DNA of 64,000 nt. Source: an uncultured candidate division Zixibacteria bacterium (GTDB lineage Bacteria > Zixibacteria > MSB-5A5 > UBA10806 > 4484-95). A program made the translations under genes and the position numbers. Below, one piece after another: positions 13,874-43,070 of the stretch (position 1 is its first letter; every line of letters begins with the position of its first letter). Where the stretch lies: assembly GCA_963668625.2 (NCBI GenBank), contig CAXXKA010000010.1:64001-128000 (forward strand). The letters run 5' to 3'. Under the pieces are notes generated by a model. The model ran no database searches. It was not told the origin of the DNA and saw only the letters and a program-made list of their open reading frames with translations.

Positions 13874-14061
13874 ATATCCTTCTGCATTAATCCAAGCTTT
13901 CCCTTGAGATATTAAAGAGAATAGTTTTAAGCCAATCAATTTTAAACTTCTAAAAGAAAACATAATGTAATATATTTTGTCAGGCAAGATAATTATTGTC
14001 TCGCGGATGGTTTGCTAAATGTCACAGTAAATCGAATTTACGTATTGTAAATGGGATCATC

Positions 14062-15459: not shown

Positions 15460-15596
15460 CTTTTAATGCTAAATTGCCTTGCATTTGCTATACCGAATTT
15501 CGTATTTTACGCAATGCCGCAATATTTTTATAGGTTTTTATTGCCGTTAGCACGACGGTATTTTTCTGGTCTTTTAAAATATGAAAGAGATAAAAC

Positions 15597-17184: not shown

Positions 17185-17188
17185 AGAT

Positions 17189-19435: not shown

Positions 19436-19902
19436 AAATAAAATTCAAATTAAATCATGAAGATGTCGAGATAGAGGCTCCGGGGGCCGAGCGTCTGATA
19501 GATATGCTCCGCGAGCGATTCGAACTGGTCGGTACCAAGGAGGGGTGCAGCAAGGGCGAATGCGGCGCCTGCACTATTCTTCTTGACGGCAAACCGGTTT
19601 GCTCGTGCTTGATGCTGGCCTCGCAGGTAATCGGGTGCGAGGTGATCACGATCGAAGGATTGGCAATCGATGGTAAAATGCATCCGGTACAGGAAGCATT
19701 CATAGAGACCGGCGCGGTGCAGTGCGGTTTCTGTTCACCTGGTTTGCTTTTGTCCTCGGCCGCGTTATTAAACGAGATACCGAATCCTGACAGACGGCAA
19801 ATCAGGCGGGCGCTATCGGGTAACCTGTGCCGATGTACCGGCTATGAGAAGATATTCGAGGCGGTGGAGATTGCCTCGCAAATGATGAGCAAAGGCAAGT
19901 GA
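19432..19902 (+). CDS. Xdh/CoxS-type 2x[2Fe-2S] subunit 1
   Basis: GCSKGECGAC, QCGFC, CRCTGY; ATGA overlap with the upstream stop. Confidence 0.93.
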   Translation: MKIKFKLNHEDVEIEAPGAERLIDMLRERFELVGTKEGCSKGECGACTILLDGKPVCSCLMLASQVIGCEVITIEGLAIDGKMHPVQEAFIETGAVQCGFCSPGLLLSSAALLNEIPNPDRRQIRRALSGNLCRCTGYEKIFEAVEIASQMMSKGK

Positions 19903-20753
19903 TCATGGTAAAGCATGATACGATTAATCCGACAAGTTTGAAAGGCGCTCTGGAAAGCCTGGCCGGTAGCAATATCATTCCGATTGCCGGCGGTACCGAT
20001 CTACTGGTGAAACTTCATGGGCAATACGATAAACCCTGGCCCTCGCTACTGGTGTTGGAAAGAGTAAAGCCGCTTCATAAGATTCAGGTAAAGAAAAACA
20101 CGGTAGCTATTGGACCACTGCTAACGTTTTCCGATATCGAACAATCAACGGAGTTGAAGAAATACGCTTTTCAATTAGCGGAGGCCGCCTCGGTAGCCGG
20201 CTCGACCCAGATCAGAAACCGGGCAACGATCGGAGGCAATGTCGCCAATGGTTCGCCATCGGGTGATTTGCTCCCGCCGCTCTACGTGCTGGGTGCGAAA
20301 CTTCGCCTGGCCTCGGTAAATGGTAGTCGTACCGTTCCTGTCGAGGACTTTTTCGAGGGACCCGGCCGGACTATCAAAAATAAAAAAGAATTGATAACCG
20401 CAATCGAGTTCGATAAATCGTATAAAGCCGGTTTTTTCAACCGTCTGGCTACACGGAAAGCGCTGGCGATCAGTAAGGTATCGGTCGCCGCTAATATATC
20501 ACTTAAAAAAAATCGAATAGAAAATATTAAAATTGCTCTGGGCGCGGTTGCTCCCACGGTTATCAGGGCATATGAAACAGAGGAATATCTAAAAGGCAAG
20601 ATGCTGAATGATGATGTTCTGGATAAAGCTATTGGTATCATAACGAGTGAAGCGAAACCTATAGATGATCTAAGATCACTTGCCGAGTATCGCAAGGAGA
20701 TGGTTGGGGTGCTGTTCAAGCGAGGTATCGAGAAATACATGCAGGTAAATTAA
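19899..20753 (+). CDS. Xdh/CoxM-type FAD subunit 1
   Basis: AGGTDL, QIRNRATIGGN, PIDDLRS. Confidence 0.92.
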   Translation: MIMVKHDTINPTSLKGALESLAGSNIIPIAGGTDLLVKLHGQYDKPWPSLLVLERVKPLHKIQVKKNTVAIGPLLTFSDIEQSTELKKYAFQLAEAASVAGSTQIRNRATIGGNVANGSPSGDLLPPLYVLGAKLRLASVNGSRTVPVEDFFEGPGRTIKNKKELITAIEFDKSYKAGFFNRLATRKALAISKVSVAANISLKKNRIENIKIALGAVAPTVIRAYETEEYLKGKMLNDDVLDKAIGIITSEAKPIDDLRSLAEYRKEMVGVLFKRGIEKYMQVN

Positions 20754-23074
20754 TGGGCGCGAGTAAGAAATTCAATGTCCTGGGCACGGCAATCCAACGC
20801 GTAGATTCGCTGGATAAAGTAACCGGCAAGGCTGTCTATGCCGCCGATCACAACGTAACCGGTCAGCTCTTCGGCCGGGTCAAATATCCCGACTATCCCC
20901 ACGCTAAAATCCTATCGATTGATATATCTGAAGCGAAATCATTGGATGGTGTCCGGGCGGTGATGATCGCCGAGGACATTCCGGGAGAGCCATCGTTCGG
21001 CTCGGTCGTTGCTCATCAAATGGCGCTGTGTACCGATAGAGTTCGTTTCTGGGGGGATGCCGTAGCGCTGGTCGCGGCGGATACTCCGGAACTTGCCGAG
21101 TACGCCGTATCACTTATAGAGGTGGAATACGAACCTCTGGAGGTGGTAAGCGATCCTAAAGAGGCGTTAAAGAAGAAGTCTATTAAAATACATAGCGGGG
21201 GTAACCTCTGCGTTCACCATAAGGTATCTAAAGGCGATATAGAAAAGGGATTCGCCCAATCGGATATCATACTCGAACGCGATTACCGTACTCAGAAAAT
21301 TGAACACGCATATCTCGAACCGGAGGCCGTGCTGGCTCGTCCCGGAGAGAATGGCGGCGTTACTATCGTTGGTTCGGTTCAAAACCTCTATACTATAAGG
21401 CGAGCGGTTGCCCGTGTTCTGGGTGTCGAGCTAAGTCGCGTGAGAATAGAGCAGGCGGTTCTTGGCGGCTCGTTCGGCGGTAAGGATGAGGTAATGGGCG
21501 CGATGTGTTGTCGAGCTGCTTTGTTGGCGCTGGCGACCGGCAGGCCGATAAAGATAGTCAACAGCCGCGAGCAATCGATGCGCGAATCGTACAAACGTCA
21601 CCCTTACCGGATAGAATACAAGATCGGCGCTACTGAATCCGGCGTTATCAAAGCGATTCAATCCGTGATGTACGCCGATGCCGGCGCTTATGCCACCATG
21701 TCTCCTTTCGTGACCTGGCGCTCGGTGGTGCACGGTTCGGGGCCTTATCGTATAGCTAATGTCAAAACCGATGTTTACGCGGCTTACACGAACAACTGCT
21801 ACACCGGGGCTATGCGCGGTTTCGGCTCGCCGCAGGTATGTTTCGCGGTGGAATCACTCATAGATGAACTTGCAGAAAAGCTTGGTATGAATCCTTATGA
21901 GTTGAGGATAAAGAATCTCATTAAGGATAACTCGATAACGGCCACCGGTCAAAAATTACAGCATAAGGTCGGTATCAGGCAGGTTCTTGACAACGTAATA
22001 AAACGCGCTGACTATGATGATAAATGGAATCGGTACAGAAAGCAAAGCCCTGCCGACGAGTTCAAACGCGGGATCGGCTTTTCATGCAGCTATCGGGGAG
22101 TTTCGCTGGGGGCCGAGGGTATCGATGCTGCCGGTGTGAATATCTCTATTCAAACGGATGGTTCGATAATAGCCTCGACCGGTTTGATCGAAATGGGGCA
22201 GGGGGCCGCCACTACGATTTCGATGATAATCGCGGAAGAGCTTGGCGTGACCACCGATCATATAAGGTTCTTGAACGCCGACACCTCGATCACGCCCGAC
22301 TCGGGGCCGACCGTAGCCTCGCGTACTACCATAATGGCCGGCAACGCCGCTCGTAACGGTTGCCGTGAGCTTTTGAAAAAACTGAAACCTGTTGCCGCCG
22401 AATATCTGGGCTGCGCTACCGGGCAATTAAAATTAAAAGACAATATTATTCATTCTGATAATAAAGAAATGAATTTCAGTGAGCTTGCCGCGATATGTTT
22501 CGGTAAGGGGATCCCAATGTATACACTTGGCTGGTACAAGTCCCCAAAAACATCGTGGGACGAGGAGACCGGTAAAGGCGAGGCATATTTCACGTTCGTA
22601 TACGGCGCGAACCTGGCGGAGGTTGAGGTCGATTGCGTGACAGGTAAGGTGAGATTGTTGAATTTCATCAGCTCCCACGATCTTGGCAGGGTGGTAAATT
22701 TAAACGGCGCGAAAGGACAGGTTTACGGCGGTGTGGCAATGGGAATGGGATACGCCCTGTTCGAGACATACAGTGAATCCGACGGTATCCCGAAATTCGA
22801 AAACTACGACGAGTACCTGATTCCCACCATATGCGATATGCCACCCGTTGAAATCGAGTTCGTGGAAAATCCCGATAAGCTCGGCCCGTTTGGCGCGAAA
22901 TCGATAGGCGAGCCCGCGTGCGAACTGGCCGCCCCGGCAATCGCTAACGCCATATACAACGCCACCGGCAGACGATTACTCGAATTGCCTATTACATTGG
23001 AACAGGTGTTGATCGGGAAGAACCTGACTCGCACGGAATCACGCGGCTCCTCGAAAGCGCGGGGTGAAGACTGA
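20753..23074 (+). CDS. Xanthine dehydrogenase family molybdopterin-binding subunit 2
   Basis: EHAYLEP, GGSFGGKDE, AMRGFG, EMGQG, TVASR, KSIGE. Confidence 0.93.
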   Translation: MGASKKFNVLGTAIQRVDSLDKVTGKAVYAADHNVTGQLFGRVKYPDYPHAKILSIDISEAKSLDGVRAVMIAEDIPGEPSFGSVVAHQMALCTDRVRFWGDAVALVAADTPELAEYAVSLIEVEYEPLEVVSDPKEALKKKSIKIHSGGNLCVHHKVSKGDIEKGFAQSDIILERDYRTQKIEHAYLEPEAVLARPGENGGVTIVGSVQNLYTIRRAVARVLGVELSRVRIEQAVLGGSFGGKDEVMGAMCCRAALLALATGRPIKIVNSREQSMRESYKRHPYRIEYKIGATESGVIKAIQSVMYADAGAYATMSPFVTWRSVVHGSGPYRIANVKTDVYAAYTNNCYTGAMRGFGSPQVCFAVESLIDELAEKLGMNPYELRIKNLIKDNSITATGQKLQHKVGIRQVLDNVIKRADYDDKWNRYRKQSPADEFKRGIGFSCSYRGVSLGAEGIDAAGVNISIQTDGSIIASTGLIEMGQGAATTISMIIAEELGVTTDHIRFLNADTSITPDSGPTVASRTTIMAGNAARNGCRELLKKLKPVAAEYLGCATGQLKLKDNIIHSDNKEMNFSELAAICFGKGIPMYTLGWYKSPKTSWDEETGKGEAYFTFVYGANLAEVEVDCVTGKVRLLNFISSHDLGRVVNLNGAKGQVYGGVAMGMGYALFETYSESDGIPKFENYDEYLIPTICDMPPVEIEFVENPDKLGPFGAKSIGEPACELAAPAIANAIYNATGRRLLELPITLEQVLIGKNLTRTESRGSSKARGED

Positions 23075-23934
23075 TGATAAATATTAGCAGCTACGACCGA
23101 CCTGACTCGATAGACGAAGCGTTGGCCTTGATATCAGCCGAAAGATACCTGCCGCTTGCCGGAGGTACCGATCTTATCATACAGCTCAGGGCGGGTGAAC
23201 GTTCGAGGGTGCTGGATATCGGCAGGCTCGGGATGGATTATATAACCGAGCACGATAACACGATAGAGATAGGCGCGGCGGCCACTCACACGGCAATTTC
23301 CACCTCTAATTTAGCGGGGAAATACCTTCCACTGCTCAAAATCGCATCGGGGCTGGTTGGCTCCCGGCAGATCAGGAACAGGGGAACGGTTGGCGGTAAT
23401 ATCGCAAACGCCTCCCCCTGCGCTGATACCATACCGGCATTGTTAAACTATGACACCGAACTCGTCCTGATATCCAAAGGCGGAGAACGGCGGGTAAAAT
23501 TGTCTGAATTTACTATCAAGCCGTATGAGACGATTAAACGTGATGATGAGTTATTGAAATGCATCATTTGCAATAAAGATAATTTGAGTGCCGGGCATTC
23601 GTATATAAAGCTGGGAAGGCGGCAGGCGGTTAATATCTCCCGGATGAGCGTGGCGGTTACGGTAACTCGAAATGATAGTGGCCTGTTGGAGGATGTACGA
23701 ATTGCCGCAGGCTCCGTTTTTCCAACAGCCTCGAGAATACCCGGGTTGGAAAGTATGCTAATAAAGAAGAGCGCGACACCCAAACTGATAAGCGAGGCCG
23801 GAGAATACGCCGCGGAATTGATGATAGAACAAAGCGGCACGAGATGGTCTACGCCTTATAAAAAACCGGTGTTAATCGGTTTGATGATAAGAGCTATCAA
23901 TGAGGCAGTTGCCAAAGCAGGGTTAAACAGATGA
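23074..23934 (+). CDS. Xdh/CoxM-type FAD subunit 2
   Basis: AGGTDL, QIRNRGTVGGN, KLGRR. Confidence 0.92.
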   Translation: MINISSYDRPDSIDEALALISAERYLPLAGGTDLIIQLRAGERSRVLDIGRLGMDYITEHDNTIEIGAAATHTAISTSNLAGKYLPLLKIASGLVGSRQIRNRGTVGGNIANASPCADTIPALLNYDTELVLISKGGERRVKLSEFTIKPYETIKRDDELLKCIICNKDNLSAGHSYIKLGRRQAVNISRMSVAVTVTRNDSGLLEDVRIAAGSVFPTASRIPGLESMLIKKSATPKLISEAGEYAAELMIEQSGTRWSTPYKKPVLIGLMIRAINEAVAKAGLNR

Positions 23935-24461
23935 GCATAACCGATAAGATCATATCTGATACCACCGTTGATATAAGTTTCAGGTTAAACGGGGCCGGCT
24001 ATACGAAAAGCGTTCCCTCGAACTTGACTCTTCTGCGTTTTTTGCGCGAGCACATGGGATTAACCGGTACCAAGTGTGGCTGCGAGATCGGCGAATGCGG
24101 AGCTTGCACGGTTTTACTGGACGGTAAAGCCATAAACTCCTGCCTGGTTTTGGCCGGGCAGATAGATGGCGCTAGTATCTGGACAATAGAGGGCGTGAGT
24201 TCGGCCGGCGCGGAGTGCTTAAATCCGATTCAACAGGCATACCTCGACTGTGATGCCGTGCATTGCGGATTTTGTTCGCCGGGAATGATAATGTCCACAC
24301 TGGCGTTGTTCCTCGAAAATATCAATCCTGGCGAGGATGAAATTAAAACAGCTTTAGCCGGTAATCTATGTCGCTGCACAGGCTATATTCAAATTATCGA
24401 GGCTGTAAGTAAAGCGGCTTCGAATATAACGGAAAAAGACTTAAAGAAATTCAGGCATTAA
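23931..24461 (+). CDS. Xdh/CoxS-type 2x[2Fe-2S] subunit 2
   Basis: GCEIGECGAC, HCGFC, CRCTGY. Confidence 0.93.
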   Translation: MSITDKIISDTTVDISFRLNGAGYTKSVPSNLTLLRFLREHMGLTGTKCGCEIGECGACTVLLDGKAINSCLVLAGQIDGASIWTIEGVSSAGAECLNPIQQAYLDCDAVHCGFCSPGMIMSTLALFLENINPGEDEIKTALAGNLCRCTGYIQIIEAVSKAASNITEKDLKKFRH

Positions 24462-24462
24462 T

Positions 24463-25719
24463 ATGAAATTCGATGAACAAAAAATATCAGTAAGCGAACA
24501 TGATCGTAGCTGGGTATCGTATGAGATAGAACGATGCTTGAATTGCTACGATCCGCCCTGCCAGGCAAGCTGCCCGGCGGGAATTCCTATACCATCATTT
24601 ATCAGTTCTCTAAAAACGGGTAATATCAATCGCGCGGTAAAAATTATCTATCAGGCCAACCCGGTTGCTTCTATATGCGGGAAAGTATGCCCTGAGGAGA
24701 TATTCTGCCAGAGCAATTGCACCCGCTCTAAAATAGATTCGCCGGTTAAAATCAGGGAGCTTCACGGTTACGCCACCGATGCGGTTAAGGATTCGAGATT
24801 GAAAGAGAATAAGAAAAAAGGCAGCGTGGCGATAATCGGTTCCGGGCCGGCAGGAATATCATGCGCGACCGTACTATCCGAAAACGGAATGAAAACTACT
24901 ATCTATGAAAAATCGAATACCCCCGGAGGCGTACCATCCAGCAGCATACCCGATTTCCGTCTCGGAGATGATACTATCAGCCTGGATATCGAGCGAGCTG
25001 AAAATACGGGGATTAAGATTATAACTAATAAGCTTATCGATAATCCCTTGGAATTACTCGAGGAGTATAAAGCGATATTCATAGCTACAGGTTTATCGAT
25101 TAATAAGAAAGCTAAATTACCCGGTGGAGATTTGCCCGCAGTGTTGCCGGCGTTGAGTTTCCTGGAAAATGCCCGCACCGAAGGCGTATCATATGTCAGG
25201 GATAAAGATATCGTGATCGTCGGCGGAGGTAATGTTTCGCTGGATGTTGCCGCTACGGCATTGGAATCGGGAGCCTCGTCAGTCAGATTGCTTTACCGTC
25301 GAGGACCGCAACAAATGAAGGTTTGGAGATCGGAACTCGAGGAGGCGCAGTTACGAGGAGCGATCATCGACTATCTCGTGTCACCAATAGAATATCTGTC
25401 TGAATCAAACGTACTGAAAGCCGTTAGATGTATCAGGATGAAGTTATCTAACGATCTCGATACCTCTGACAGACGCGTGCCTGTTCCCGTAGACGGTTCC
25501 GAGTTCATTATTCCCGCCGACTTCATAATAGAGGCAATCGGCATGGAATCCGACTTTTGCAAAGAGATTACCGTCAACCGGGATCAGACAACATCGATTG
25601 AGGGCATTTTCGCAGGTGGTGATTGGGCCAGAGGCGAGGGTACGATAGTAGAGGCGGTTCGGGATGGCAAACAGGCGGCGCATAAAATTATGGCATATCT
25701 GAAAGAGAAAAGCATATGA
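24463..25719 (+). CDS. preT: PreT/GltD-like Fe-S flavoprotein (dihydropyrimidine dehydrogenase subunit-like)
   Basis: CLNCYDPPCQASCP, CGKVCP...CQSNC, GSGPAG, GGGNV, AGGD. Confidence 0.8.
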   Translation: MKFDEQKISVSEHDRSWVSYEIERCLNCYDPPCQASCPAGIPIPSFISSLKTGNINRAVKIIYQANPVASICGKVCPEEIFCQSNCTRSKIDSPVKIRELHGYATDAVKDSRLKENKKKGSVAIIGSGPAGISCATVLSENGMKTTIYEKSNTPGGVPSSSIPDFRLGDDTISLDIERAENTGIKIITNKLIDNPLELLEEYKAIFIATGLSINKKAKLPGGDLPAVLPALSFLENARTEGVSYVRDKDIVIVGGGNVSLDVAATALESGASSVRLLYRRGPQQMKVWRSELEEAQLRGAIIDYLVSPIEYLSESNVLKAVRCIRMKLSNDLDTSDRRVPVPVDGSEFIIPADFIIEAIGMESDFCKEITVNRDQTTSIEGIFAGGDWARGEGTIVEAVRDGKQAAHKIMAYLKEKSI

Positions 25720-26924
25720 TATTAACATCACCGAGACTTCAATCGGAATTTTTAGGAATCAAGCTGGAGAACCCGTTCATACTTTCGGCCGCGCCCTCCA
25801 CCGATGAGCTTGATATAGCTCGCGACGGCTTGAAATCCGGCTGGGCCGGTTTGATACTCAAGACAACCTCGATGCCCACGACCGGTGTAGATTTGGCTTA
25901 TCCCATGATGAGCTCGTTCAAAGACAGCGATAAAGTAATTGGAATGGGCAATATCGATCTGATCAGTATCTACCATATTGATGAGATAGTCAAAAGAGTG
26001 GCTACGCTTAAAAGCGAATTTCCCGGCAAGATGATAGGCGCTTCGATAATGTCCGATTCCAAAGAGGGCTGGCAAACTCTGGTTAAGGAGTTGAAAAACG
26101 CCGGCGCGGATTTGATCGAGTGCAGTTTCTCCTGTCCGCAAGGAAATGTCGGTGAAGATCCCGGCAAGATGCTGGCCCAGAGCGAACCGGCCACCGAGAA
26201 AGTAGCGACCTGGGTGAAAGAAGCCGCCGGTGACTTGCCCGTGCTGATAAAAATATCCCCGCAGGTAACTGATATCGTTGCTATTACCAGGGCCGTAGCG
26301 CGCTCCGGTTGTGATGGTGTAACGGCATCCAACTCGATCCCGGCGCTTATGGGAATCGATATCGAGACATTGAAACCAATCCCCGATGTCAGCGGCTATT
26401 CCACTTATTCGGGATTGACCGGCGTGGCAATCAAACCCATCACCTTGAGAACCATAGCCGAGATAGCCCGCAATGTCGAGGGTATAGTTATCTCCGGTAA
26501 TGGCGGAATCTCGAACTGGCGCGATTCCGTAGAGGTGTTGGCCGTGGGCGCCTCCAATGTGCAGATATGCACGGCGGTGATGATGCACGGATTCGGTATC
26601 ATCGAGGATTTATGTTCCGGGCTGGATGAGTATCTCGTACGGAAAGGCTATGGTTCCGTATCGGATTTGGCCGGTAAAGCTTTACCCGCGCTGACGAATC
26701 ATGACAGCTTACCTCGCCATGAGGTACGAAGCTCGGTTATCGAGGAAAACTGTATAGGTTGTGGCAGATGTTATATAGCTTGCCGTGACGGCGGCCATCG
26801 CGCCATTAGCTGGCATAATGAAAAACGCCTGCCGGAGGTAGATGAAAATAAATGTGTCGGGTGCGGACTGTGTCTTATGGTGCAGCCGGTAGAAAATTGC
26901 CTGGCTTTGAAGATAATTGAATGA
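25716..26924 (+). CDS. preA: PreA-like FMN barrel plus ferredoxin domain (dihydropyrimidine dehydrogenase subunit-like)
   Basis: NPFILSAAP, LKT, NIDLIS, SCPQG, SGNGGI, VQICTAVM, CIGCGRCYIAC and CVGCGLC. Confidence 0.8.
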   Translation: MILTSPRLQSEFLGIKLENPFILSAAPSTDELDIARDGLKSGWAGLILKTTSMPTTGVDLAYPMMSSFKDSDKVIGMGNIDLISIYHIDEIVKRVATLKSEFPGKMIGASIMSDSKEGWQTLVKELKNAGADLIECSFSCPQGNVGEDPGKMLAQSEPATEKVATWVKEAAGDLPVLIKISPQVTDIVAITRAVARSGCDGVTASNSIPALMGIDIETLKPIPDVSGYSTYSGLTGVAIKPITLRTIAEIARNVEGIVISGNGGISNWRDSVEVLAVGASNVQICTAVMMHGFGIIEDLCSGLDEYLVRKGYGSVSDLAGKALPALTNHDSLPRHEVRSSVIEENCIGCGRCYIACRDGGHRAISWHNEKRLPEVDENKCVGCGLCLMVQPVENCLALKIIE

Positions 26925-26952
26925 GTGATTATTTTTTCAGGAGTATATAGTT

Positions 26953-28698
26953 ATGTCATCAAACCCATTTGCCAGACGGTCAACCCAGTCGATCAAGGAA
27001 CTGGTCGAGGTATCCTCGGGAAAGAAGCCTGCGGATATATGTCTGGAAAACGCAAAAATAGTTAATGTTTATTCCAACGAGATTATCGAGGGCAATGTCG
27101 CGATATACCAGGATAGAATTGCCGGTGTAGGGCCGAAATACAAAGCTACCAAAAAAATCAATCTAAAAGGCAAATATATTGCGCCCGGTTTTATAGACGG
27201 TCACTTTCATATCGAATCCTCACTGGTAATTATTCCCGAGTTAGCCCGGGTGATCGTACCTCGTGGGACAACCTCTGTTATCGCCGATCCTCACGAGATA
27301 ACCAACGTGCTCGGGTATGACGGTATAAGGTTCATGCTGGAATCTTCCAAGTATAATCCACTTAACGTTTTTTTCACCCTGCCCTCATGCGTTCCGGCAA
27401 CCGATCTGGAGACCTCCGGCTCATCCATGAAAGCATTCGATATATTTCCGTTCTTTACCGAGAAATGGGTCGTGGGTTTGGGCGAGGTAATGAACTACCC
27501 CGGTGTGCTGAACGGTCAGGATGATGTTATCGAAAAAATCGCTATTACCGAGGGGAAACGTATCGATGGTCACGCGCCCGGAGTTGGTGGCAAAGACCTG
27601 GCCGGATATATCTCCGCCGGTATCGCTTCCGATCACGAGTCGACCTCGCTGGAGGAAGCCCGCGAGAAACTTAGGCTGGGTATGTACGTGATGATACGCG
27701 AGGGCTCCGCGGCTAAAAATCTCGATAGCCTTTTACCCCTGGTGAACCATAAGAACAAAGGTCGATTCATATTCGTAACCGATGATCACAATCCGCTGGA
27801 TATCCTGTCGGCCGGGCATATCGACGGCGTAGTCAGAAAAGCGATCAAGAAAGGTCTCGATCCGATTACCGCCATTCAGCTTGCTACATTGAACCCGGCG
27901 GAGTATTTCGGCGTAACCGATATCGGCGCGATCGCTCCCGGATTGCTCGCCGATATGATCGTGTTCGAGGATTTGAAGAAGATCAATATCACCGATGTTT
28001 ATAAAAGCGGCAAGCAGGTCGGGAAAAACGGCAAGCCTGTTTATGATGATGTCCCGCATCCCCGCCCGGTTATAAGGAGCACGGTCAATATCAAATGGCT
28101 CGAGGGGAACGAGTTTCGTATTCCTGCCGAAAACGGTAAATGCCGCGTTATCGGAATAGTACCGAACCAGCTGGTGACCAATAGCAAGGTATTAAAGCCA
28201 AAAGTTCAGAATGGCGAAGTCGTTTCCGATCCCGGGCGTGATATCCTGAAACTATTCGTACTCGAAAGGCATACCGCCTCGGGAAGAATCGGTAAAGGAC
28301 TGGTGCAAGGGTTAGGTATTAAAAAGGGGGCCGTTGCCACCTCGATAGCTCACGATTCGCATAATATCATTGCGGCAGGTGTTAACGATGAGGACATATT
28401 CAAAGCCGTGATACAGATAAACAAAATCGGCGGCGGTATGGCTGTCGTTGCCGACGGCAAACTTCTGGCGGATGTCAAACTACCGATAGCCGGACTGATG
28501 TCGGATAAATCGATGATTGATGTCGCAGCCGATATCAAGAAGCTCAAGAAGACGATTCGTAAACTGGGTTCGGAACTGGAGGACCCGATGATGACATTGA
28601 GTTTCATGGCGTTGCCGGTTATCCCTCAATTGAAGCTTACTGATTTCGGCTTGATCGATGTCAACAGTTTCCAGCAAGTGGGGCTGTTCGTTGACTGA
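26953..28698 (+). CDS. ade: Adenine deaminase
   Basis: DGHFHIESS, DPHEI, EVMNYPGV, DGHAP, REGSAAKNL, AHDSHN, LPVIP. Confidence 0.93.
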   Translation: MSSNPFARRSTQSIKELVEVSSGKKPADICLENAKIVNVYSNEIIEGNVAIYQDRIAGVGPKYKATKKINLKGKYIAPGFIDGHFHIESSLVIIPELARVIVPRGTTSVIADPHEITNVLGYDGIRFMLESSKYNPLNVFFTLPSCVPATDLETSGSSMKAFDIFPFFTEKWVVGLGEVMNYPGVLNGQDDVIEKIAITEGKRIDGHAPGVGGKDLAGYISAGIASDHESTSLEEAREKLRLGMYVMIREGSAAKNLDSLLPLVNHKNKGRFIFVTDDHNPLDILSAGHIDGVVRKAIKKGLDPITAIQLATLNPAEYFGVTDIGAIAPGLLADMIVFEDLKKINITDVYKSGKQVGKNGKPVYDDVPHPRPVIRSTVNIKWLEGNEFRIPAENGKCRVIGIVPNQLVTNSKVLKPKVQNGEVVSDPGRDILKLFVLERHTASGRIGKGLVQGLGIKKGAVATSIAHDSHNIIAAGVNDEDIFKAVIQINKIGGGMAVVADGKLLADVKLPIAGLMSDKSMIDVAADIKKLKKTIRKLGSELEDPMMTLSFMALPVIPQLKLTDFGLIDVNSFQQVGLFVD

Positions 28699-30025
28699 TA
28701 AAGCTAAGCTAATAGTATCGTGTCAGGATATTTTCACCAATGAAAAAAGCTGTCCGCTTATTCGCTCCGGCGCGATACTCATGGAAGACGGATTGGTCAA
28801 AGAGGTTGGCGAGGCCGGGAAAATTAAAGCTCGATATCCGGAGGCTAAAGTCGAAAATCTCGGCGCCGGCCTAATTACGCCGGGATTGGTTAACCTTCAC
28901 CATCACCTTTACTCCTCTTTCGCCAGAGGCTGGAATCCCGGAACGGAATCTCCGGTTAATTTCCCGCAAATATTAGAACGTATCTGGTGGCGACTCGATA
29001 AAGCTCTTAACCTCGATGATATATACTACTCCGCAATAGTCGGTTTGTGCGAATCGATACGTATGGGAGTAACCGCCGTTGTCGATCACCACGCCGGCCA
29101 GAATATGGTAACAGGTTCGTTGGATAATATCGCCGCCGCATTTACCGAAATAGGTTTGAAAGGTTCGGTCTGTTTCGAGTTAAGCGACAGAGGTGGATCG
29201 AGTATTTTTCAGGATGGGTTAAGCGAAAATATTAACGCTATCGAAAAGTATAATATGACCAACAGTAAGCTCGAACCGATGGTTGGACTTCACGCCTCTC
29301 TGACTCTTTCGGATAAGAGTTTGGAAACGATATATCGCGCAACAAAGGATTCGGGTGCGGGATATCATCTGCATTTGGCCGAGGATAAATCCGATCAAGA
29401 GGATTCGGAATCCAAATATGGTATGAGGGTCACCGAACGTTTTGCCAGGTATAATCTGTTAAATGATAAATCGCTGGCCATTCATGGAGTTCATCTAAAC
29501 GATGATGAAATCAAGATTTTAGCGGATGCCGGCGCAAACCTGGTAATTTGTCCCCGATCGAATCAGAACAACGGCGTAGGTATTCCTCGATGGTGGGACT
29601 ATGATAACGTTAATGTCGGCCTGGGTACCGATGGGATCGATTCGAGTGTTATCAACGAGGCGAAATCTGCGCTATATATAACTCATCACGAGCGTAAAAA
29701 TCCCGATTTCGGATTCGGCCGGCTTAGCGATATGCTTTTCGGGCGCAATCCCGAGATATTCGAAAAAATTACCGGTGTGAGAGTCGGAAAGATAGCTGCA
29801 GGTCATCCGGCTGATATTGTTTATTGGGATTACGACTCACCTACGCCCGTAAATGAAAATAACATAGCCGGCCATTACCTGTACGGGCTGGGCAATCATC
29901 TAGCCGATACCGTTTGGATTGATGGTGAAAAAGTATATGGAAAAGGCGAGTTCAAAAAAATCGATTATAGAAAACTCATGAGCGAAGCACGAGAGGCGGC
30001 CGGTAGTTTATGGCAAAGATTATAA
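28691..30025 (+). CDS. ssnA: SsnA-like metal-dependent aminohydrolase
   Basis: NLHHHLYSSFARG, WWRLDKAL, GLHASLT, HLHLAED, GTDG. TTG start at 28691 overlapping the ade stop is inferred. Confidence 0.85.
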   Translation: MTDKAKLIVSCQDIFTNEKSCPLIRSGAILMEDGLVKEVGEAGKIKARYPEAKVENLGAGLITPGLVNLHHHLYSSFARGWNPGTESPVNFPQILERIWWRLDKALNLDDIYYSAIVGLCESIRMGVTAVVDHHAGQNMVTGSLDNIAAAFTEIGLKGSVCFELSDRGGSSIFQDGLSENINAIEKYNMTNSKLEPMVGLHASLTLSDKSLETIYRATKDSGAGYHLHLAEDKSDQEDSESKYGMRVTERFARYNLLNDKSLAIHGVHLNDDEIKILADAGANLVICPRSNQNNGVGIPRWWDYDNVNVGLGTDGIDSSVINEAKSALYITHHERKNPDFGFGRLSDMLFGRNPEIFEKITGVRVGKIAAGHPADIVYWDYDSPTPVNENNIAGHYLYGLGNHLADTVWIDGEKVYGKGEFKKIDYRKLMSEAREAAGSLWQRL

Positions 30026-31269
30026 AATACAGCCTGAAGTGTGTTTCCTGTGATAAGGAATTTGAGCCCAAATCGAGCGTAATGACCTGTCCCGAATGCG
30101 GCGAGTTCAGGGGCACGCTAGATGTAATCTATCCATACGATGAAATAAAAAGCAGTTTTACGAAACCTTTATCGTTTTATGGCAGAGATTCGGTCTACGA
30201 ATCATTATTGCCTATTATGCCATACGATAATCCTGCCTGCTTGCCTCCCGTACCTGTCGGTTCGACACCTATATTCGAATCACCGGCCTTATCGAAAATA
30301 CTGGGGCTGAACAATCTCTGGCTGAAAGATGACAGCCGCAATCCCTCGGCCTCATTGAAAGACAGGGCGTCGGCAACAACGCTGGCTATGGCTAATGAAT
30401 CTGGCGCCTCGGTAATCGCGGTTGCCTCTACCGGTAACGCCGCCTCCTCGCTGGCAACATTGGCAGCCTCTATGTCGATAACCGCCATGCTGTTCGTCCC
30501 AAAAACTATACCTCGCCCCAAGCTGGCCCAGCTGACTATTCACGGAGCTAAAATTATCTGCCTCGATTGCGACTACGACAGTGCGTTCGACCTATGTCAG
30601 CTTGCCTGTAAAAGATTTGGCTGGTACAACCGTAACACCGCGGTAAACCCGTACACCGGCGAGGGCAAGAAAACAGCCGCGCTGGAAATCGCCTGTAGCC
30701 TGGGGGAATCGCCGGATGTAGTAATATGTCCTGTAGGGGATGGCTGTATACTGAGTGGGATTTACAAGGGATTTTGGGATCTTCGGAAATTAGGCCTTAT
30801 AGATAAGATACCGAGACTTTACGGTGTGCAGGCCTCGGGTTCAGCGCCGCTGGTAAAAGCTTTCGAAAGCGGTAACGATATAACGCCAATCGAAAGTGTC
30901 AACACTATCGCGGATTCCATTTCGGTCGGTTACCCTCGTGATGGCGTTAAAGCGATGAGAGCGGTCAAAAATAGCAGTGGTAAATTCATAACCGTCTCCG
31001 ATGATCAAATAGTTAAAGCTCAGCAACTGGCGGCCTCGAAAGGCGGCGTTTTCGTTGAGCCGGCGGCGGCGGCGGCGATCGCGGGGCTGTTATCACTTAA
31101 CGAGAATAACGAATTCTCGAAAAACGAAAAAATCGTAACCTTACTTACGGGGCATGGCCTGAAAGATATCGACACGGTAATTAAAAATACTAAAACCGAT
31201 ATCGAAATCATGCAACCGGATATCGATATCATAACCGAAAAGATAGAAAAAACTATACGCTGGAGATAA
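30010..31269 (+). CDS. Threonine-synthase-like PLP enzyme (fold type II) with N-terminal Zn ribbon; substrate probably not O-phosphohomoserine
   Basis: CVSC/CPEC, NPSASLKDR (Schiff-base Lys), ASTGNAA, PVGDG, TGHGLK. Confidence 0.8.
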   Translation: MAKIIKYSLKCVSCDKEFEPKSSVMTCPECGEFRGTLDVIYPYDEIKSSFTKPLSFYGRDSVYESLLPIMPYDNPACLPPVPVGSTPIFESPALSKILGLNNLWLKDDSRNPSASLKDRASATTLAMANESGASVIAVASTGNAASSLATLAASMSITAMLFVPKTIPRPKLAQLTIHGAKIICLDCDYDSAFDLCQLACKRFGWYNRNTAVNPYTGEGKKTAALEIACSLGESPDVVICPVGDGCILSGIYKGFWDLRKLGLIDKIPRLYGVQASGSAPLVKAFESGNDITPIESVNTIADSISVGYPRDGVKAMRAVKNSSGKFITVSDDQIVKAQQLAASKGGVFVEPAAAAAIAGLLSLNENNEFSKNEKIVTLLTGHGLKDIDTVIKNTKTDIEIMQPDIDIITEKIEKTIRWR

Positions 31270-31279
31270 AGGAGAACTT

Positions 31280-32332
31280 ATGGCAATCAAGTGGGATGCG
31301 TACAACACTATCACCGATAACATTTTCGATACTATCGGCAGAACACCTTTAGTTAGATTGAGTAAAATCCCCGAACTGACCGGAATCGACTGCGAGATAC
31401 TGGGCAAACTGGAATATTTCTCGCCCTCAGGAAGCTTGAAAGACAGAATTTACCTGAATATGTTCGATCTGGCCGAACAAAGAGGCGAACTGAAACCCGG
31501 TATGACCGTGCTGGAATGCTCGACGGGAAATGCCGGAATCGGTTGCTCTTTCGTAGCCGCCACCAAAGGATACAAGTGCATCATAGTAATGCCCAGGGGG
31601 ATGTCCGAAGAGCGTAAAATGCTCGATATGATTTATGGTTCGGAGATGGTTTACACACCAGGCGGTGAAAGCGATGTCGATTTAGCATTGGAGAAGTTGC
31701 AGGAAATTAAAAATCAGGATCCAGATAAATACTGGGTACCGGCACAGTTCGATAATCCCGACAATATCGAGGCGCATTACCGCACTACCGGTCCTGAGAT
31801 ATGGGAGCAGACGGATGGTAAGTTCGATGCTTTCATCGCGACCCAGGGAACCGGAGGCACGATCACGGGGGCGGGAAGGTATTTCCATCAGTTCAATAAA
31901 GATATCAAACTTTACGCTATCGAACCGGCGGAATGCCCACTTCTTTCAAAACGTGTCTGGGGACCGCATGGCATCGAGGGTATCGGGGATGGTTTCGTGC
32001 CGCTAAATCTCGATGTCTCGATCCTTAGTGGCATTATTACCACTACCACCAAAGAAGCTGTGGAGATGGCTAAAATATTAGCCGCCAAAGAGGGGATATT
32101 CTGCGGAATATCATCGGGTTCTAATGTCGCCTCGGCTGTTAAGCTGGCGAAGAAACATCCGGAGATAAAACGAATCGTAACCATGATTAACGACACGGGT
32201 CAGCGTTATTTCTCGACACCGTTATGCGGGGTGGAGAAACATCTGGAGATACCCGAAAGATCTCACCCTATGGACGATAGAACTATTGCGGAGCTGGATA
32301 AATATCAAGCTGACTGGGAAATTATCGAATGA
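31280..32332 (+). CDS. Cysteine-synthase-like PLP enzyme (fold type II)
   Basis: IGRTPLV, SGSLKDR, CSTGNAG, QFDNPDN, GTGGT, GISSG. Confidence 0.8.
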   Translation: MAIKWDAYNTITDNIFDTIGRTPLVRLSKIPELTGIDCEILGKLEYFSPSGSLKDRIYLNMFDLAEQRGELKPGMTVLECSTGNAGIGCSFVAATKGYKCIIVMPRGMSEERKMLDMIYGSEMVYTPGGESDVDLALEKLQEIKNQDPDKYWVPAQFDNPDNIEAHYRTTGPEIWEQTDGKFDAFIATQGTGGTITGAGRYFHQFNKDIKLYAIEPAECPLLSKRVWGPHGIEGIGDGFVPLNLDVSILSGIITTTTKEAVEMAKILAAKEGIFCGISSGSNVASAVKLAKKHPEIKRIVTMINDTGQRYFSTPLCGVEKHLEIPERSHPMDDRTIAELDKYQADWEIIE

Positions 32333-33537
32333 GTACACCTGATCCCAAAGAGATATTAAAAAGTGCGGAGAAATACCGCGACTACTCCAGCGAGCTGCTC
32401 TCGAAACTGATCAGGATACCGTCGGTTTCCGGTGAGGAGAAAAGCGTAGTCGAATTCCTCGAACAGGAATTCAATGAGTGCGGTGCTGATGAGGTTACTA
32501 TCGATCCTTTCGGCAACATAATCGCCCGGTTGGGTAGCGGTAAGCCGGCAATCGCTCTCGATGCTCATATCGATACGGTCGATATCGGTATGAAAGACCA
32601 GTGGCAAACCGATCCGTTCTCGGGCATAATCCGGGATGGTAAAGTATTCGGCAGGGGAACATCCGACCAGAAAGCCGGTATGGCCTCCATGATGACAGCC
32701 CTGAGAATTCTTAAAGAATGCTGTGATGATTTTCCGTTCACACTGTATTTTACCGGTTCGGTACTGGAGGAGGATTGTGACGGTTTATGCTGGCAGTATA
32801 TTATCAAAGAGGACAAACTAAAACCCGATCTGGTAATCATCACCGAACCAACCGACGGTAAAATCAATCGCGGGCAACGCGGACGTATGGAGATCGAGAT
32901 CGTTACGAAAGGCGTATCATGTCATGGTTCGGCTCCGGAGCGTGGCGATAACGCGATCTACAAGTTGGCCCCGATAATAACCGCCCTCGAGAAACTTAAC
33001 GAGAGATTAAAAACGGATGAGTTCCTGGGGAAAGGCACCCTGGCTATCTCGAGAATTCGATCCAATGCTCCCTCGCTTTGTGCCGTGGCGGATATGGCGG
33101 CGTTATATATAGACAGGCGAACCACCGCCGGCGAGACCGCCGAATCGGTAGTTGCCGAGATTAACGCCTTACCTGAGGTAAGGGCGGCGAACGCTACCAT
33201 AGTGATTCCTGAATATGACAGGCGTACCTGGAACGGGCTGTCGTACCCTACCTCCAAAATATTTCCGGCCTGGGCGCTTCCCGAGAATCATGATTATCTG
33301 GATAAGGCATCAGGATGCTATGAGTCGTTATTCGATACCGAGCCCGTAATAGATAAATGGACGTTCTCGACTAATGGTGTAGCCACTATGGGCATGTTCG
33401 ATATTCCAACGTTCGGTTATGGCCCGGGGATGGAGAAAATGGCACACGCGCCCAATGAGTACATGAATATAGATGACCTCGTGAAATGCTCGGCGTTTTA
33501 TGCCGCTTATCCTTTTGCGTTTGTCAATGAATACTAA
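32329..33537 (+). CDS. ygeY: YgeY family M20 hydrolase
   Basis: DAHIDTV, GRGTSDQK, EEDCDGLCW, RGQRGR, SCHGSAPERGDNA, WTFSTNGV, AHAPNE. Confidence 0.9.
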   Translation: MSTPDPKEILKSAEKYRDYSSELLSKLIRIPSVSGEEKSVVEFLEQEFNECGADEVTIDPFGNIIARLGSGKPAIALDAHIDTVDIGMKDQWQTDPFSGIIRDGKVFGRGTSDQKAGMASMMTALRILKECCDDFPFTLYFTGSVLEEDCDGLCWQYIIKEDKLKPDLVIITEPTDGKINRGQRGRMEIEIVTKGVSCHGSAPERGDNAIYKLAPIITALEKLNERLKTDEFLGKGTLAISRIRSNAPSLCAVADMAALYIDRRTTAGETAESVVAEINALPEVRAANATIVIPEYDRRTWNGLSYPTSKIFPAWALPENHDYLDKASGCYESLFDTEPVIDKWTFSTNGVATMGMFDIPTFGYGPGMEKMAHAPNEYMNIDDLVKCSAFYAAYPFAFVNEY

Positions 33538-33818: not shown

Positions 33819-34595
33819 CTACAATATTTCACTGTGACGTTTAACGCTAATCACCTCGGCGGCGATCGCTATGGCTATCTCGTGTGGCCCCTCGGCGCCA
33901 ATGCTGAGGCCTATCGGTGAGTGAACTTTTTCGAGAAGTTTTATGTCGATGCCATCGCTTTTCAACGCGGCATAGGTTCTGGCTATTTTCTTTTTCGAGC
34001 CAATCATTCCGATATAGGCGTATTCTTTCGTGACGACTTTCGCCAGTATATCTTTATCGTACTTATGACCCTGGGTAACTATTACTATATAGCAATTTCG
34101 GTCAATCTCGGGGATATCTGCCTGGTAGTTTTCATCGGCGAGTATGGTTTGTACCGGCGGCTCGTAATGGGCCAATATCTCTTTTCTGTTATCTATAACT
34201 ATCGTTCGGAAATTCAGGCCTGCCATTACCTCGGTTAATGCCCGGCAGACATGTCCGCCACCGAATATCAGAAGTTTATCCGGGGCATCATATAACTCCA
34301 GGAAGACCTGCGCTTTGCCGCCGCATATCATACCGGTTGAATCCGGTCCGGCCTCCTCCAAATCATATGATTCGAGCAGATGCTTGGCGTATCCGGTAAA
34401 AAGGGAAAGGGCGTTCTCTACGACAATTCTTTCGAAATTACCACCGCCGATCGTCCCCTCCAGCGCGCCATCCCGATATACTATCATCTTGGCTCCGGGT
34501 CGCCTGGGAGTATGACCGGAGGTATCGACCAGCGTTGCCAGCACGCACGGTATCCCACGTTCGATATTATCATTTACTTTTTTAATGATATCCAT
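33819..34595 (-). CDS. xdhC: XdhC/CoxI family Moco-insertion accessory protein
   Basis: GHTPRRPGAKM, GTIGGG, MICGG, YIGMIGS, PIGLSIGAEGPHEIA. Confidence 0.9.
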   Translation of the reverse strand: MDIIKKVNDNIERGIPCVLATLVDTSGHTPRRPGAKMIVYRDGALEGTIGGGNFERIVVENALSLFTGYAKHLLESYDLEEAGPDSTGMICGGKAQVFLELYDAPDKLLIFGGGHVCRALTEVMAGLNFRTIVIDNRKEILAHYEPPVQTILADENYQADIPEIDRNCYIVIVTQGHKYDKDILAKVVTKEYAYIGMIGSKKKIARTYAALKSDGIDIKLLEKVHSPIGLSIGAEGPHEIAIAIAAEVISVKRHSEIL

Positions 34596-41864: not shown

Positions 41865-43070
41865 ATGTTTGACACTGGCAACACCGGCTTTATGCTGGTC
41901 GCAACCAGCCTGGTTATGCTTATGACACCGGGGCTGGCTTTCTTCTATGGCGGCCTCGTGGGGCGTAAAAACGTGCTATCGATCATGATTCAGAGTTTCG
42001 TCTCGATGGGCGTTACTACTATCCTGTGGTATGCCGTAGGCTTCTCGCTCTGTTTCAGCGGAGGCGAGGGAGGTATCATCGGTAATCTCGATATGGCTTT
42101 CTTGAATGGCGTCGATGCCACGACGGCTTTCGGGGACGGCCAGATACCGATGTTCGTTTTCTTCGCTTACCAGATGATGTTCGCTATTATCACTCCCGCC
42201 CTGATTACCGGAGCTTTCTCCAATCGTGTGCGGTTCCCCGCTTACCTGGTATTCCTGGTGGCCTGGCTTCTGCTCGTCTACTTCCCCTTCGTACATATGA
42301 TCTGGGGCGGCGGAATTCTGGCCGAATGGGGTGTGCTTGATTTTGCGGGTGGTATAGCGGTACACAACATTGCCGGTATGGCGGCATTAGCCTCGGTACT
42401 GTTCGTTGGCCGTAGAAGAGTTGCGGATAAAGGCCCACATAGTATTCCCCTGGTTGCGTTGGGTACCGGTTTGCTCTGGTTCGGTTGGTATGGTTTTAAC
42501 GCCGGCAGTGAGCTTCAGGTTGACTCGATCACTGCCCTGGCATTCGTCAACACCGATGTTGCCGCATCATTTGCTGCGATTTCCTGGTTGTTTTTGGAAT
42601 GGACACTGGCCAAGAAGCCGAAAATCGTTGGTTTGTTGACCGGCGCTGTCGCCGGCCTGGCTACGATTACCCCGGCTGCCGCTTATGTCTCGACAAGCTC
42701 CGCCGCAATTATCGGTTTGTGTGCCGGTATAATTTGTTATGGCGCGGTTAGCTTGAAAAACAAGCTCCAGTGGGATGATGCTCTCGATGTCTGGGGCGTT
42801 CACGGAGTCGGCGGTGCGCTGGGTATTATCATGCTTGGCCTGCTGGGCAGTACGGCCGTTAACTCGGCTGGCGCCGATGGCCTATTATTCGGCGGCGTTG
42901 ATTTCTTCTTTAAAGAGCTGGTTGGCATCGTGGTGTCATCCATTTATGCCTTCGTCTTTACATATGCGATGCTCTGGATTATCAATAAGATTACTACCGT
43001 TAAAACGACGGAGGGTGAGGAAACCACTCTTGACGAGTCGTTACACGGCGAAAACGCTTATATCAATTAA
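41865..43070 (+). CDS. amt: Ammonium transporter
   Basis: PGLAFFYGG, YQMMFA, DFAGG.AVH, WFGWYGFN, DDALDV.GVH (twin His intact); AGGAGG RBS. Confidence 0.95.
   Translation: MFDTGNTGFMLVATSLVMLMTPGLAFFYGGLVGRKNVLSIMIQSFVSMGVTTILWYAVGFSLCFSGGEGGIIGNLDMAFLNGVDATTAFGDGQIPMFVFFAYQMMFAIITPALITGAFSNRVRFPAYLVFLVAWLLLVYFPFVHMIWGGGILAEWGVLDFAGGIAVHNIAGMAALASVLFVGRRRVADKGPHSIPLVALGTGLLWFGWYGFNAGSELQVDSITALAFVNTDVAASFAAISWLFLEWTLAKKPKIVGLLTGAVAGLATITPAAAYVSTSSAAIIGLCAGIICYGAVSLKNKLQWDDALDVWGVHGVGGALGIIMLGLLGSTAVNSAGADGLLFGGVDFFFKELVGIVVSSIYAFVFTYAMLWIINKITTVKTTEGEETTLDESLHGENAYIN

Follow-up and report, generated by a model that had tools for sequence, protein, structure and literature searches.

Two pyridoxal phosphate (PLP) enzymes related to threonine synthase and cysteine synthase are encoded within a purine-degradation operon on a stretch of 64,000 nucleotides from a bacterium of the phylum Zixibacteria (the window, to whose positions all coordinates refer unless a contig or locus is named). 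The threonine-synthase-like enzyme (ThrCl, 30010–31269) and the cysteine-synthase-like enzyme (CysKl, 31280–32332) stand where a diaminopropionate ammonia-lyase (DpaL; YgeX of Escherichia coli) would be expected, and their families are inherited together with the pathway enzyme SsnA and to the exclusion of DpaL. From the comparisons described below it is probable, although well short of certain, that ThrCl and CysKl together replace YgeX, acting on 2,3-diaminopropionate (DAP), and possibly on albizziin too, to give pyruvate and ammonia.

Both genes lie on the + strand between those for SsnA (28658–30025, +) and the hydrolase YgeY (32329–33537, +). As a sequence-only reading of the same DNA had noticed, the coupling is tight: the reading frame of ThrCl overlaps that of SsnA by 16 nucleotides, the stop codon of ThrCl is followed after 10 nucleotides by the start of CysKl, and CysKl overlaps YgeY by 4 nucleotides. 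ThrCl and CysKl are translationally coupled between their two neighbours. According to the open reading frame (ORF) calls, these four genes close a run of 16 co-directional genes on the + strand (13996–33537), which together form a single operon devoted to the reductive urate (2,8-dioxopurine) pathway. Between positions 13000 and 32900, 36 promoter-like sites were counted against 29.1 ± 4.9 in shuffled sequences, and 20 terminator-like sites against 20.6; both counts are at chance level, so the operon is deduced from gene spacing alone.

In the pathway as set out in the main texts of two recent reports, reduction of urate gives 2,8-dioxopurine, which YgfK dearomatises, ring opening by SsnA yields ureidomethyl-hydantoin, HyuA opens the hydantoin, YgeW and YgeY take off the two ureido groups, and YgeX finally converts DAP into pyruvate and ammonia, the intermediates named being ureidomethyl-hydantoin, 2,3-diureidopropionate and DAP (Li et al. 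2025; Liu et al. 2025). Each of these steps has a candidate enzyme in the window save the last. In E. coli K-12 the genes are ordered ygeW-ygeX-ygeY-hyuA-yqeA and mocA-ygfK-ssnA-ygfM-xdhD, and the position of CysKl relative to ygeY is exactly that of ygeX. The location of the pair at the expected place of the lyase, proposed from the sequence alone, is thus matched by the E. coli gene order, and DpaL was not found in the source genome (95.9% complete), where the best match to its model TIGR01747 is IlvA with 40 bits against a cut-off of 274; the E. coli protein, searched as a control, scores over this cut-off.

ThrCl and CysKl share with YgeX the fold type II of PLP enzymes (PF00291) and a gene context composed of SsnA, YgeY, HyuA, a carbamoyltransferase and molybdenum hydroxylases. 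They are, however, not orthologous to it: in BLASTP E. coli YgeX reaches only 36 bits with ThrCl and 35 with CysKl, neither protein matches TIGR01747, and two enzymes are present in the window instead of one. Around the G-N pair YgeX has the loop T-D-G-N-H; ThrCl and CysKl both have S-T-G-N-A. Term searches of both texts found no mention of cysteine-synthase-like or threonine-synthase-like enzymes in Li et al. (2025) or Liu et al. (2025), and no description of a replacement of YgeX by such enzymes was found in the literature searched, which comprised these two texts and, for other papers, titles and openings of abstracts.

Among 151 genomes of the phylum, CysKl orthologs (75–100% identity; next best match 48%) occur in five, namely G000, G028, G066, G106 and G115. 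SsnA (E ≤ 1e-40) was detected in the same five genomes, in two of them over its cut-off, and so were ThrCl orthologs (49–100% identity; next best 36%), which are located between SsnA and CysKl. DpaL (E ≤ 1e-30) was detected in 47 of the 151 genomes, in 45 over the cut-off, and in none of these five. SsnA, ThrCl and CysKl are co-inherited in this phylum and mutually exclusive with DpaL.

This distribution bears on the alternative that an ordinary housekeeping threonine synthase and cysteine synthase lie in a purine operon by chance, which we regard as the most improbable of the explanations weighed here. Relatives of the two proteins are indeed named threonine synthase and cysteine synthase A in public records. 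ThrCl scores 200.9 bits on TIGR00260 (cut-off 167.1) and is the only gene of its genome above that value, just as the cluster-borne ThrCl is in G028, G066, G106 and G115, and CysKl falls 6 bits short of the CysK cut-off (345.1 bits on TIGR01139, cut-off 350.95; 340.2 on TIGR01136, cut-off 344.15). Housekeeping genes would nevertheless hardly be restricted to 5 of 151 genomes that are exactly those with SsnA, and the motif changes in both proteins, described below, are family-wide. Seven genes of the source genome belong to PF00291; according to NCBIfam models they encode IlvA, a CBS-like enzyme, CysK, a second ThrC paralog, a DcyD-family enzyme, ThrCl and CysKl. The canonical CysK, encoded elsewhere in the genome, scores 435.1 bits (cut-off 351), and the separate housekeeping cysK for which the sequence-only reading had suggested looking is therefore present.

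The corresponding check for thrC came out differently, as no textbook gene was found. The genome yielded no class II ThrC (N-domain) and no homoserine kinase (thrB) over the curated cut-off. A second Zn-ribbon ThrC paralog (locus L006, C8:125622–126722; 366 amino acids) has 159.5 bits on TIGR00260, under the 167.1 cut-off, and is itself non-canonical, with SSGNA in the loop and Phe at the Arg position. It adjoins a gene for a 247-residue protein without family assignment, and no threonine-pathway neighbours were evident around it from ORF starts, no family search having been made on the neighbours. Genome G032 belongs to the same family, is 99% complete and lacks the cluster; it gave no TIGR00260 match and holds no ThrC-family gene at all, whereas 14 of 14 control genomes have such a match. 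A role of ThrCl as threonine synthase is argued against by the carriers in which it is the sole match, by G032 and by the controls taken together. Neither ThrCl nor CysKl looks like a housekeeping gene on these comparisons.

ThrCl is a Zn-ribbon threonine-synthase-like protein (PF00291 243 bits) of a clade marked by STGNA and EGKKT. It falls under the cut-offs of all six PRK-type ThrC models (255.8 bits against 303 for NF006050, 202 against 421 for NF004170 and 180 against 266 for NF004996), with NF006205 and NF005035 likewise not reached. It resembles the solved threonine synthases 2zsj, 2d1f, 6cgq and 1uim in fold and PLP lysine motif (E-values from 2e-61 to 3e-49), its SLKDR aligning with sfKDR, which holds the Schiff-base lysine. 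Its loops differ from theirs. Alignment with 2zsj, 2d1f and 6cgq places astgnA and ntavnpyTgegKkt of ThrCl opposite astgnT and n-svnpyRiegQkt; the canonical motifs S-T-G-N-T and N-S-x-N-P-x-R-x-E-G-Q-K-T are thus replaced by STGNA and NTAVNPYTGEGKKT, and PVGNAGN and ATAI by PVGDGCI and ADSI, respectively. Further differences are the Zn ribbon at the N-terminus and a distribution that tracks SsnA and not threonine biosynthesis. Three acidic residues, Asp244, Asp302 and Asp311, are newly invariant. The Thr and Arg that are lost we take to be the residues binding the substrate phosphate in threonine synthase. Of what the sequence-only reading had said about this protein, the exchange itself is confirmed by alignment to the solved structures; for the phosphate-binding role a literature search gave no usable passage.

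The sequence S[TS]GNA is found in 119 of the 120 closest database proteins, ThrCl itself counted, so the exchange characterises the whole family and is no accident of a single protein. A wider survey of the family comprised 151 sequences (149 representatives of clusters at 50% identity and two close sequences); Ala after G-N, combined with Thr (57 sequences) or Leu (40 sequences) at the Arg position, was commonest, and a single row (P0376) had both Thr after G-N and Arg. In a FastTree phylogeny of 140 sequences, all 119 locus-derived sequences with S[ST]GNA and GKK fall into one clade with a Shimodaira–Hasegawa-like (local) support of 95, and the canonical threonine synthases with STGNT and GQKT, as well as other paralogs, are positioned outside it. 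One representative of the family, P0256 (718 amino acids), carries an N-terminal fusion to an inositol-monophosphatase-family domain. Fusion partners were considered as a hint to the function of the family and set aside, as one of eight long relatives with such a domain is too isolated.

CysKl (PF00291 243 bits) has the fold of the solved cysteine synthases 2egu, 7n2t and 4aec, with E-values near 1e-80 and the Lys, GTGGT and GISSG motifs retained. Its identity to canonical CysK in the phylum sample does not exceed 48%, however, compared with 62–89% among its own cross-phylum orthologs, and it coexists with a canonical CysK in the genome. The asparagine loop P-T-S-G-N-T-G of CysK is replaced by CSTGNAG (eCSTGNAgig aligned with ePTSGNTgig of 2egu, 7n2t and 4aec), an exchange first noticed in the sequence-only reading and invariant in 120 orthologs. 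Cys80, Ser81, Thr82 and Ala85 are 100% conserved in these orthologs, the corresponding Pro, Thr, Ser and Thr being conserved at 98–100% in 119 canonical CysK sequences, and in all 38 positions are fixed differently in the two sets. Specific to CysKl are Glu233 (Gln in CysK), Asp237 (Ala in CysK), an inserted Asp132 and a conserved C-terminal extension of 35 residues. The loops that carry the invariant Glu233, Asp237 and Asp132 presumably line the active site, as they do in CysK, and the acidic residues gained there would suit a cationic β-amino leaving group. A look-up of CysKl in the ESM Atlas returned generic cysteine-synthase cluster names only.

The association of CysKl with purine clusters extends beyond the Zixibacteria. 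A scan of GTDB species genomes with the CysKl alignment confirmed 520 relatives, of which the best 80 loci were kept; these contain orthologs with 62–89% identity and come from Zixibacteria, Ignavibacteria, Acidobacteriota, KSB1, Nitrospinota, Methylomirabilota and others. ThrCl (at least 40% identity) is encoded in 35 of the 80 loci, an SsnA-like gene in 29 and YgeY in 20, with ThrCl no more than 800 nucleotides from the SsnA-like gene in 22. A YgeW-like gene is present in 13 loci and a molybdenum hydroxylase subunit in 25, and at least one purine-cluster marker was recognised in 55 of the 80 (38 of the 46 loci of at least 15 kb). DpaL was found in none of the 80 loci and in none of 40 further whole genomes with CysKl (39 if the unpublished genome G187 is left out), which amounts to 0 of 45 CysKl-carrying genomes overall. 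In five genomes whose CysKl locus lacks ThrCl, a ThrCl ortholog (45–48% identity) is encoded elsewhere in all five; two of these orthologs adjoin an SsnA-like gene and two more share a contig with one.

Some loci depart from the arrangement of the window. L031 and L043, both from Blastocatellia, encode CysKl, ThrCl, an SsnA-like protein and a 568-residue Amidohydro_3 protein, accompanied in L031 by a thioredoxin-like gene and in L043 by a CN_hydrolase and a three-subunit molybdenum hydroxylase. No HyuA, YgeY, YgeW-like gene or reductase was seen within 10 kb in either, and they may represent a variant from aerobic soil in which the ureido steps are left to other enzymes. In L096 (G091:C215:3593–7741) ThiF/MoeB-like and CysK/CysM-like ORFs accompany another ThrC-like paralog, which has the loop STGNL and shares 35% identity with ThrCl, and the locus, judged from ORF starts, resembles a cluster of the sulphur-carrier-protein type.

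A second scan, of metagenomes with the ThrCl alignment, confirmed 589 relatives, and again the best 80 loci were kept. A purine-cluster marker is present in 33 of them (25 of the 33 loci of at least 10 kb) and DpaL in none. Only 4 of the 80 contain a CysKl ortholog; 26 (21 of the 33 longer ones) contain a different CysK-fold gene with 25–40% identity to CysKl. This second partner is about 490 amino acids long (486 in L154:12239–13699 and 491 in L178:11261–12736), scores weakly on CysK models (80–93 bits), and has the loop WPSTGN[YF] and no recognisable S-x-K-D-R lysine motif. Its clusters encode SsnA (536 bits), HyuA, carbamate kinase and a carbamoyltransferase in L154 and SsnA, YgeY and a carbamoyltransferase in L178. 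In L154 a glycosyltransferase-like gene stands between the partner and ThrCl. ThrCl thus appears from its gene neighbourhoods as the constant partner of those SsnA-type clusters that lack YgeX, usually with one of two CysK-fold types, and the ThrCl-centred scan shifts the interpretation away from CysKl as the sole substitute for YgeX.

Such constancy could also mean that only one enzyme replaces YgeX, ThrCl being the lyase for DAP or albizziin and the CysK-fold enzyme having a side job such as the trapping or detoxification of aminoacrylate or of another amino acid by-product. The partner of the constant ThrCl is of two unrelated-looking types (the 350-residue CysKl in 4 and the protein of about 490 residues in 26 of the 80 ThrCl loci), 9 of the 33 longer ThrCl loci have no CysK-fold gene, and CysKl exists apart from the pathway in Methylomirabilota. 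A mere side job is nonetheless difficult to reconcile with the adjacency of both genes in all five SsnA-carrying genomes of the phylum sample, with the ygeX position that CysKl occupies beside YgeY and a YgeW-like gene in many phyla, and with the CysK-fold gene, whether CysKl or the second type, in 24 of the 33 longer ThrCl loci. The action of a single enzyme is therefore considered unlikely.

PLP enzymes require a free primary amine on their substrate. In the pathway as described in the main texts of the two reports such an amine arises only after the 2-ureido group has been removed, and hence albizziin and DAP are the candidate substrates of ThrCl and CysKl (Li et al. 2025; Liu et al. 2025). 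The adjacency of YgeY, the exclusion of DpaL, the lost signatures of ThrC and CysK and the new invariant acidic residues point to the YgeX step. With the ureido groups removed, the free C3 amino acid (DAP, or possibly its precursor albizziin) would serve as the substrate; an external aldimine would be formed and the α-proton removed, after which the β-amino (or β-ureido) group would be lost and aminoacrylate released, to be hydrolysed to pyruvate and ammonia. The proposal of new lyases for DAP or albizziin, put forward in the sequence-only reading, is partly supported: a role at the YgeX stage is the interpretation that the tracking of SsnA and the exclusion of DpaL favour most.

A division of labour may be considered on the basis of configuration. 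D-configured intermediates have been argued for, and YgeX accepts both isomers, according to the main text of Li et al. (2025). A D-specific hydantoinase of the TIGR02033 type should yield D-configured DAP; ThrCl might then act on the D-isomer, through racemisation or another conversion, and the L-specific CysK-fold partner would be the DAP ammonia-lyase proper. This split of work, in which ThrCl converts or racemises the D-isomer and its partner is the lyase, is our preferred guess and is offered tentatively; it would explain both the tie of ThrCl to the SsnA route and the occurrence of CysKl on its own elsewhere. It may take the form of a two-step PLP relay without described precedent, in which the ThrC-fold enzyme racemises or otherwise converts D-DAP or D-albizziin for a CysK-fold enzyme that would have changed from a β-replacing synthase into a lyase eliminating the β-amino (or β-ureido) group, a possibility that we raise with considerable reserve. 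Among known fold-type-II lyases, the D-serine ammonia-lyase DsdA of E. coli has the loop G-S-T-G-N-L, and the S-T-G-N core is common to ThrCl, CysKl and the partner of about 490 residues; the BLASTP similarity of DsdA to the window enzymes is, however, marginal (about 28–30 bits, E 0.002–0.008). A Thr before G-N may serve D-substrates, the residue at this position being directed to the face of the cofactor at which D-substrates lose their proton.

Instead of eliminating, one or both enzymes might divert DAP or albizziin into biosynthesis by β-replacement, with sulphide to give cysteine or with water to give serine, so that purine carbon and nitrogen would be salvaged. CysKl retains SLKDR, GTGGT, QF and GISSG and has its 345 bits on the CysK model, albizziin is on chemical reasoning isosteric with O-acetylserine, and the normal reaction of threonine synthase ends in the addition of water. 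Among the PDB matches, moreover, is O-ureido-L-serine synthase (3x43), a CysK homolog of solved structure whose reaction involves a ureido compound. A second cysteine synthase would, however, duplicate the canonical CysK of the genome, no sulphur-supply genes were found in the operon with Pfam and NCBIfam models, and since DpaL is a lyase of catabolism, its strict exclusion suggests that the pair serves a comparable catabolic step. Pyruvate as the product is also more in keeping with an operon for energy-yielding fermentation that includes a carbamoyltransferase, a carbamate kinase homolog being encoded elsewhere; a biosynthetic diversion is distinctly unlikely.

Very improbable, too, is a cofactor service in which the pair would provide selenocysteine, a thiol or some other sulphur or selenium compound for the maturation of the two molybdenum hydroxylases of the operon. 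MocA is encoded within the operon and an XdhC-type maturation factor lies convergently at its end, the NCBIfam labels of SsnA and YgeY link them to selenium metabolism, and CysK-type enzymes are able to use selenide. This explanation gives no reason for the exclusion of DpaL, and the E. coli and clostridial clusters, judged from the E. coli gene order and from Li et al. (2025), mature similar hydroxylases without ThrCl or CysKl. Furthermore, four of the five Methylomirabilota CysKl loci have no match to the molybdenum hydroxylase or other cluster proteins of the window, the fifth (L072) having weak matches of the xanthine dehydrogenase type.

Several observations weigh against a joint replacement of YgeX by ThrCl and CysKl. 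The evidence for both families is comparative throughout, with residue roles taken from alignment to solved relatives and from the structural literature, and one lyase, YgeX, suffices in E. coli, where the replacement would take two enzymes. The genomes sampled from the phylum are mutually related, so that the coincidence in 5 of 151 represents few independent events, and the background frequency of DpaL (47 of 151) comes from this phylum alone. In its genome ThrCl alone exceeds the TIGR00260 cut-off, and a class II ThrC was not found there, which leaves a slight probability for a threonine synthase role; the 6 bits by which CysKl misses the CysK cut-off are a small distance. No purine marker was recognised in 25 of the 80 CysKl loci and 47 of the 80 ThrCl loci in the sequence available, many of these loci being short. 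Finally, CysKl (63–64% identity) occurs without ThrCl or SsnA in five of five genomes of Methylomirabilota/Rokubacteria (four of four if G187 is left out), where the best ThrC matches (35%) are canonical threonine synthases with STGNT and GQKT and the best SsnA match has 25% identity; because of these genomes, the function of CysKl is not confined to purine breakdown. Around CysKl in the Methylomirabilota locus L076 lie RNase HII, SRP54 and a CoA-transferase, from which nothing about its function can be gathered.

The anaerobic urate pathway was solved only in 2025, and its last step was assigned to YgeX. If ThrCl and CysKl jointly take over that step, a large environmental set of bacteria, including Zixibacteria, Ignavibacteria, Acidobacteriota, KSB1 and many lineages known from metagenomes, would run the pathway without YgeX and be overlooked by surveys that count ygeX. 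Annotation pipelines call both PLP families threonine synthase or cysteine synthase, and metabolic models would wrongly assign threonine and cysteine synthesis to such genomes. The neighbourhoods of YgeX in Fig. 3g of Li et al. (2025) are coloured by PF00291, according to the figure legend, and colouring by this family cannot separate YgeX from ThrCl or CysKl. Should the two-step relay be true, thousands of entries named threonine synthase or cysteine synthase A from environmental bacteria and archaea would be purine-catabolic enzymes.

As regards the rest of the operon, all of whose genes are on the + strand, the enzymes SsnA, YgeY, HyuA, adenine deaminase and the PreA-like subunit each score over a curated NCBIfam cut-off. 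The first gene (13996–15459) encodes a HyuA-like D-hydantoinase/dihydropyrimidinase, predicted to open the hydantoin ring (TIGR02033 468 bits, cut-off 393; 38% identity to E. coli HyuA over 470 amino acids); its TTG start may be placed too far upstream, since the TIGR02033 match begins at residue 26. It is followed by a short (328 amino acids) YgeW-like carbamoyltransferase (15597–16583), whose best NCBIfam match is the YgeW model NF005538 (274 bits, under the 453 cut-off) and which shares 41% identity with E. coli YgeW across 347 amino acids. The scores of this protein on the N-acetylornithine, ornithine and YgeW carbamoyltransferase models are near-equal and each under the cut-off; its orthologs, with 66–75% identity, stand beside CysKl and YgeY in other phyla. 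A MocA-like molybdenum cofactor cytidylyltransferase is encoded next (16576–17184; PF12804 112 bits; TIGR03310 131 bits, under the 186 cut-off).

Two complete molybdenum hydroxylase sets lie in tandem at 17189–24461, recognised by the Pfam families MoCoBD_1/2, Fer2_2 and FAD_binding_5. Their subunit orders differ: the first set (17189–20753) has the molybdenum, 2Fe-2S and flavin adenine dinucleotide (FAD) subunits in that order, and the second (20753–24461) the molybdenum, FAD and 2Fe-2S subunits. The second set shows 27–31% identity to XdhA and XdhD of E. coli, and both sets are under every xanthine dehydrogenase equivalog cut-off of NCBIfam. A possible division of roles is the oxidation of purines to urate by one set and the reduction of urate to 2,8-dioxopurine by the other. 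Downstream, a two-subunit reductase (24463–26924) consists of a PreT-like subunit (Fer4_20 and Pyr_redox_2; 31% identity to E. coli YgfK over 407 amino acids) and a PreA-like subunit (NF006183 403 bits, cut-off 335). Judged by these similarities the pair is a candidate for the dearomatising reductase in place of YgfK, taking the role of the single 1032-residue protein of E. coli. In C. difficile a PydA-type reductase (UacX) stands in place of YgfK, as described in the main text of Li et al. (2025); the PreT/PreA-like pair resembles this solution but retains a separate FAD/NAD(P)-type subunit.

The reductase genes are followed by adenine deaminase (26953–28698; TIGR01178 655.7 bits, cut-off 472.5) and by the ring-opening amidohydrolase SsnA, which scores 462 bits on NF005540 (cut-off 444) and is 35% identical to E. 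coli SsnA over 423 amino acids. The SsnA ORF as listed overlaps adenine deaminase by 41 nucleotides (28658–28698) and matches its model from residue 18, so its true start may be further downstream. YgeY, the M20 ureido-group hydrolase that ends the operon, has 542 bits on NF009555 (cut-off 321) and 52% identity to its E. coli counterpart over 393 amino acids. What the window has in common with the urate clusters presented for E. coli, C. difficile and C. sporogenes by Li et al. (2025) and Liu et al. (2025) is SsnA, YgeY, HyuA, a carbamoyltransferase, MocA and, at family level, molybdenum hydroxylase(s) and a candidate dearomatising reductase. It differs from them in having two other PLP enzymes instead of YgeX, the PreT/PreA-type two-subunit reductase instead of YgfK, the short 328-residue form of the YgeW homolog, adenine deaminase within the operon and carbamate kinase outside it, the homolog of the latter (C6:294644) scoring 348.6 bits, under the 358.25 cut-off.

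The 3' boundary of the operon is marked by the convergent gene of the XdhC-family molybdoenzyme maturation factor (33819–34595, − strand; PF13478 and PF02625), orthologs of which, with 50–56% identity, occupy the same position in loci L008, L009, L010 and L013. About 8 kb downstream of the operon, a membrane protein of 401 amino acids is encoded (41865–43070) that appears, by eye and from its translation only, to be similar to ammonium transporters of the Amt type.

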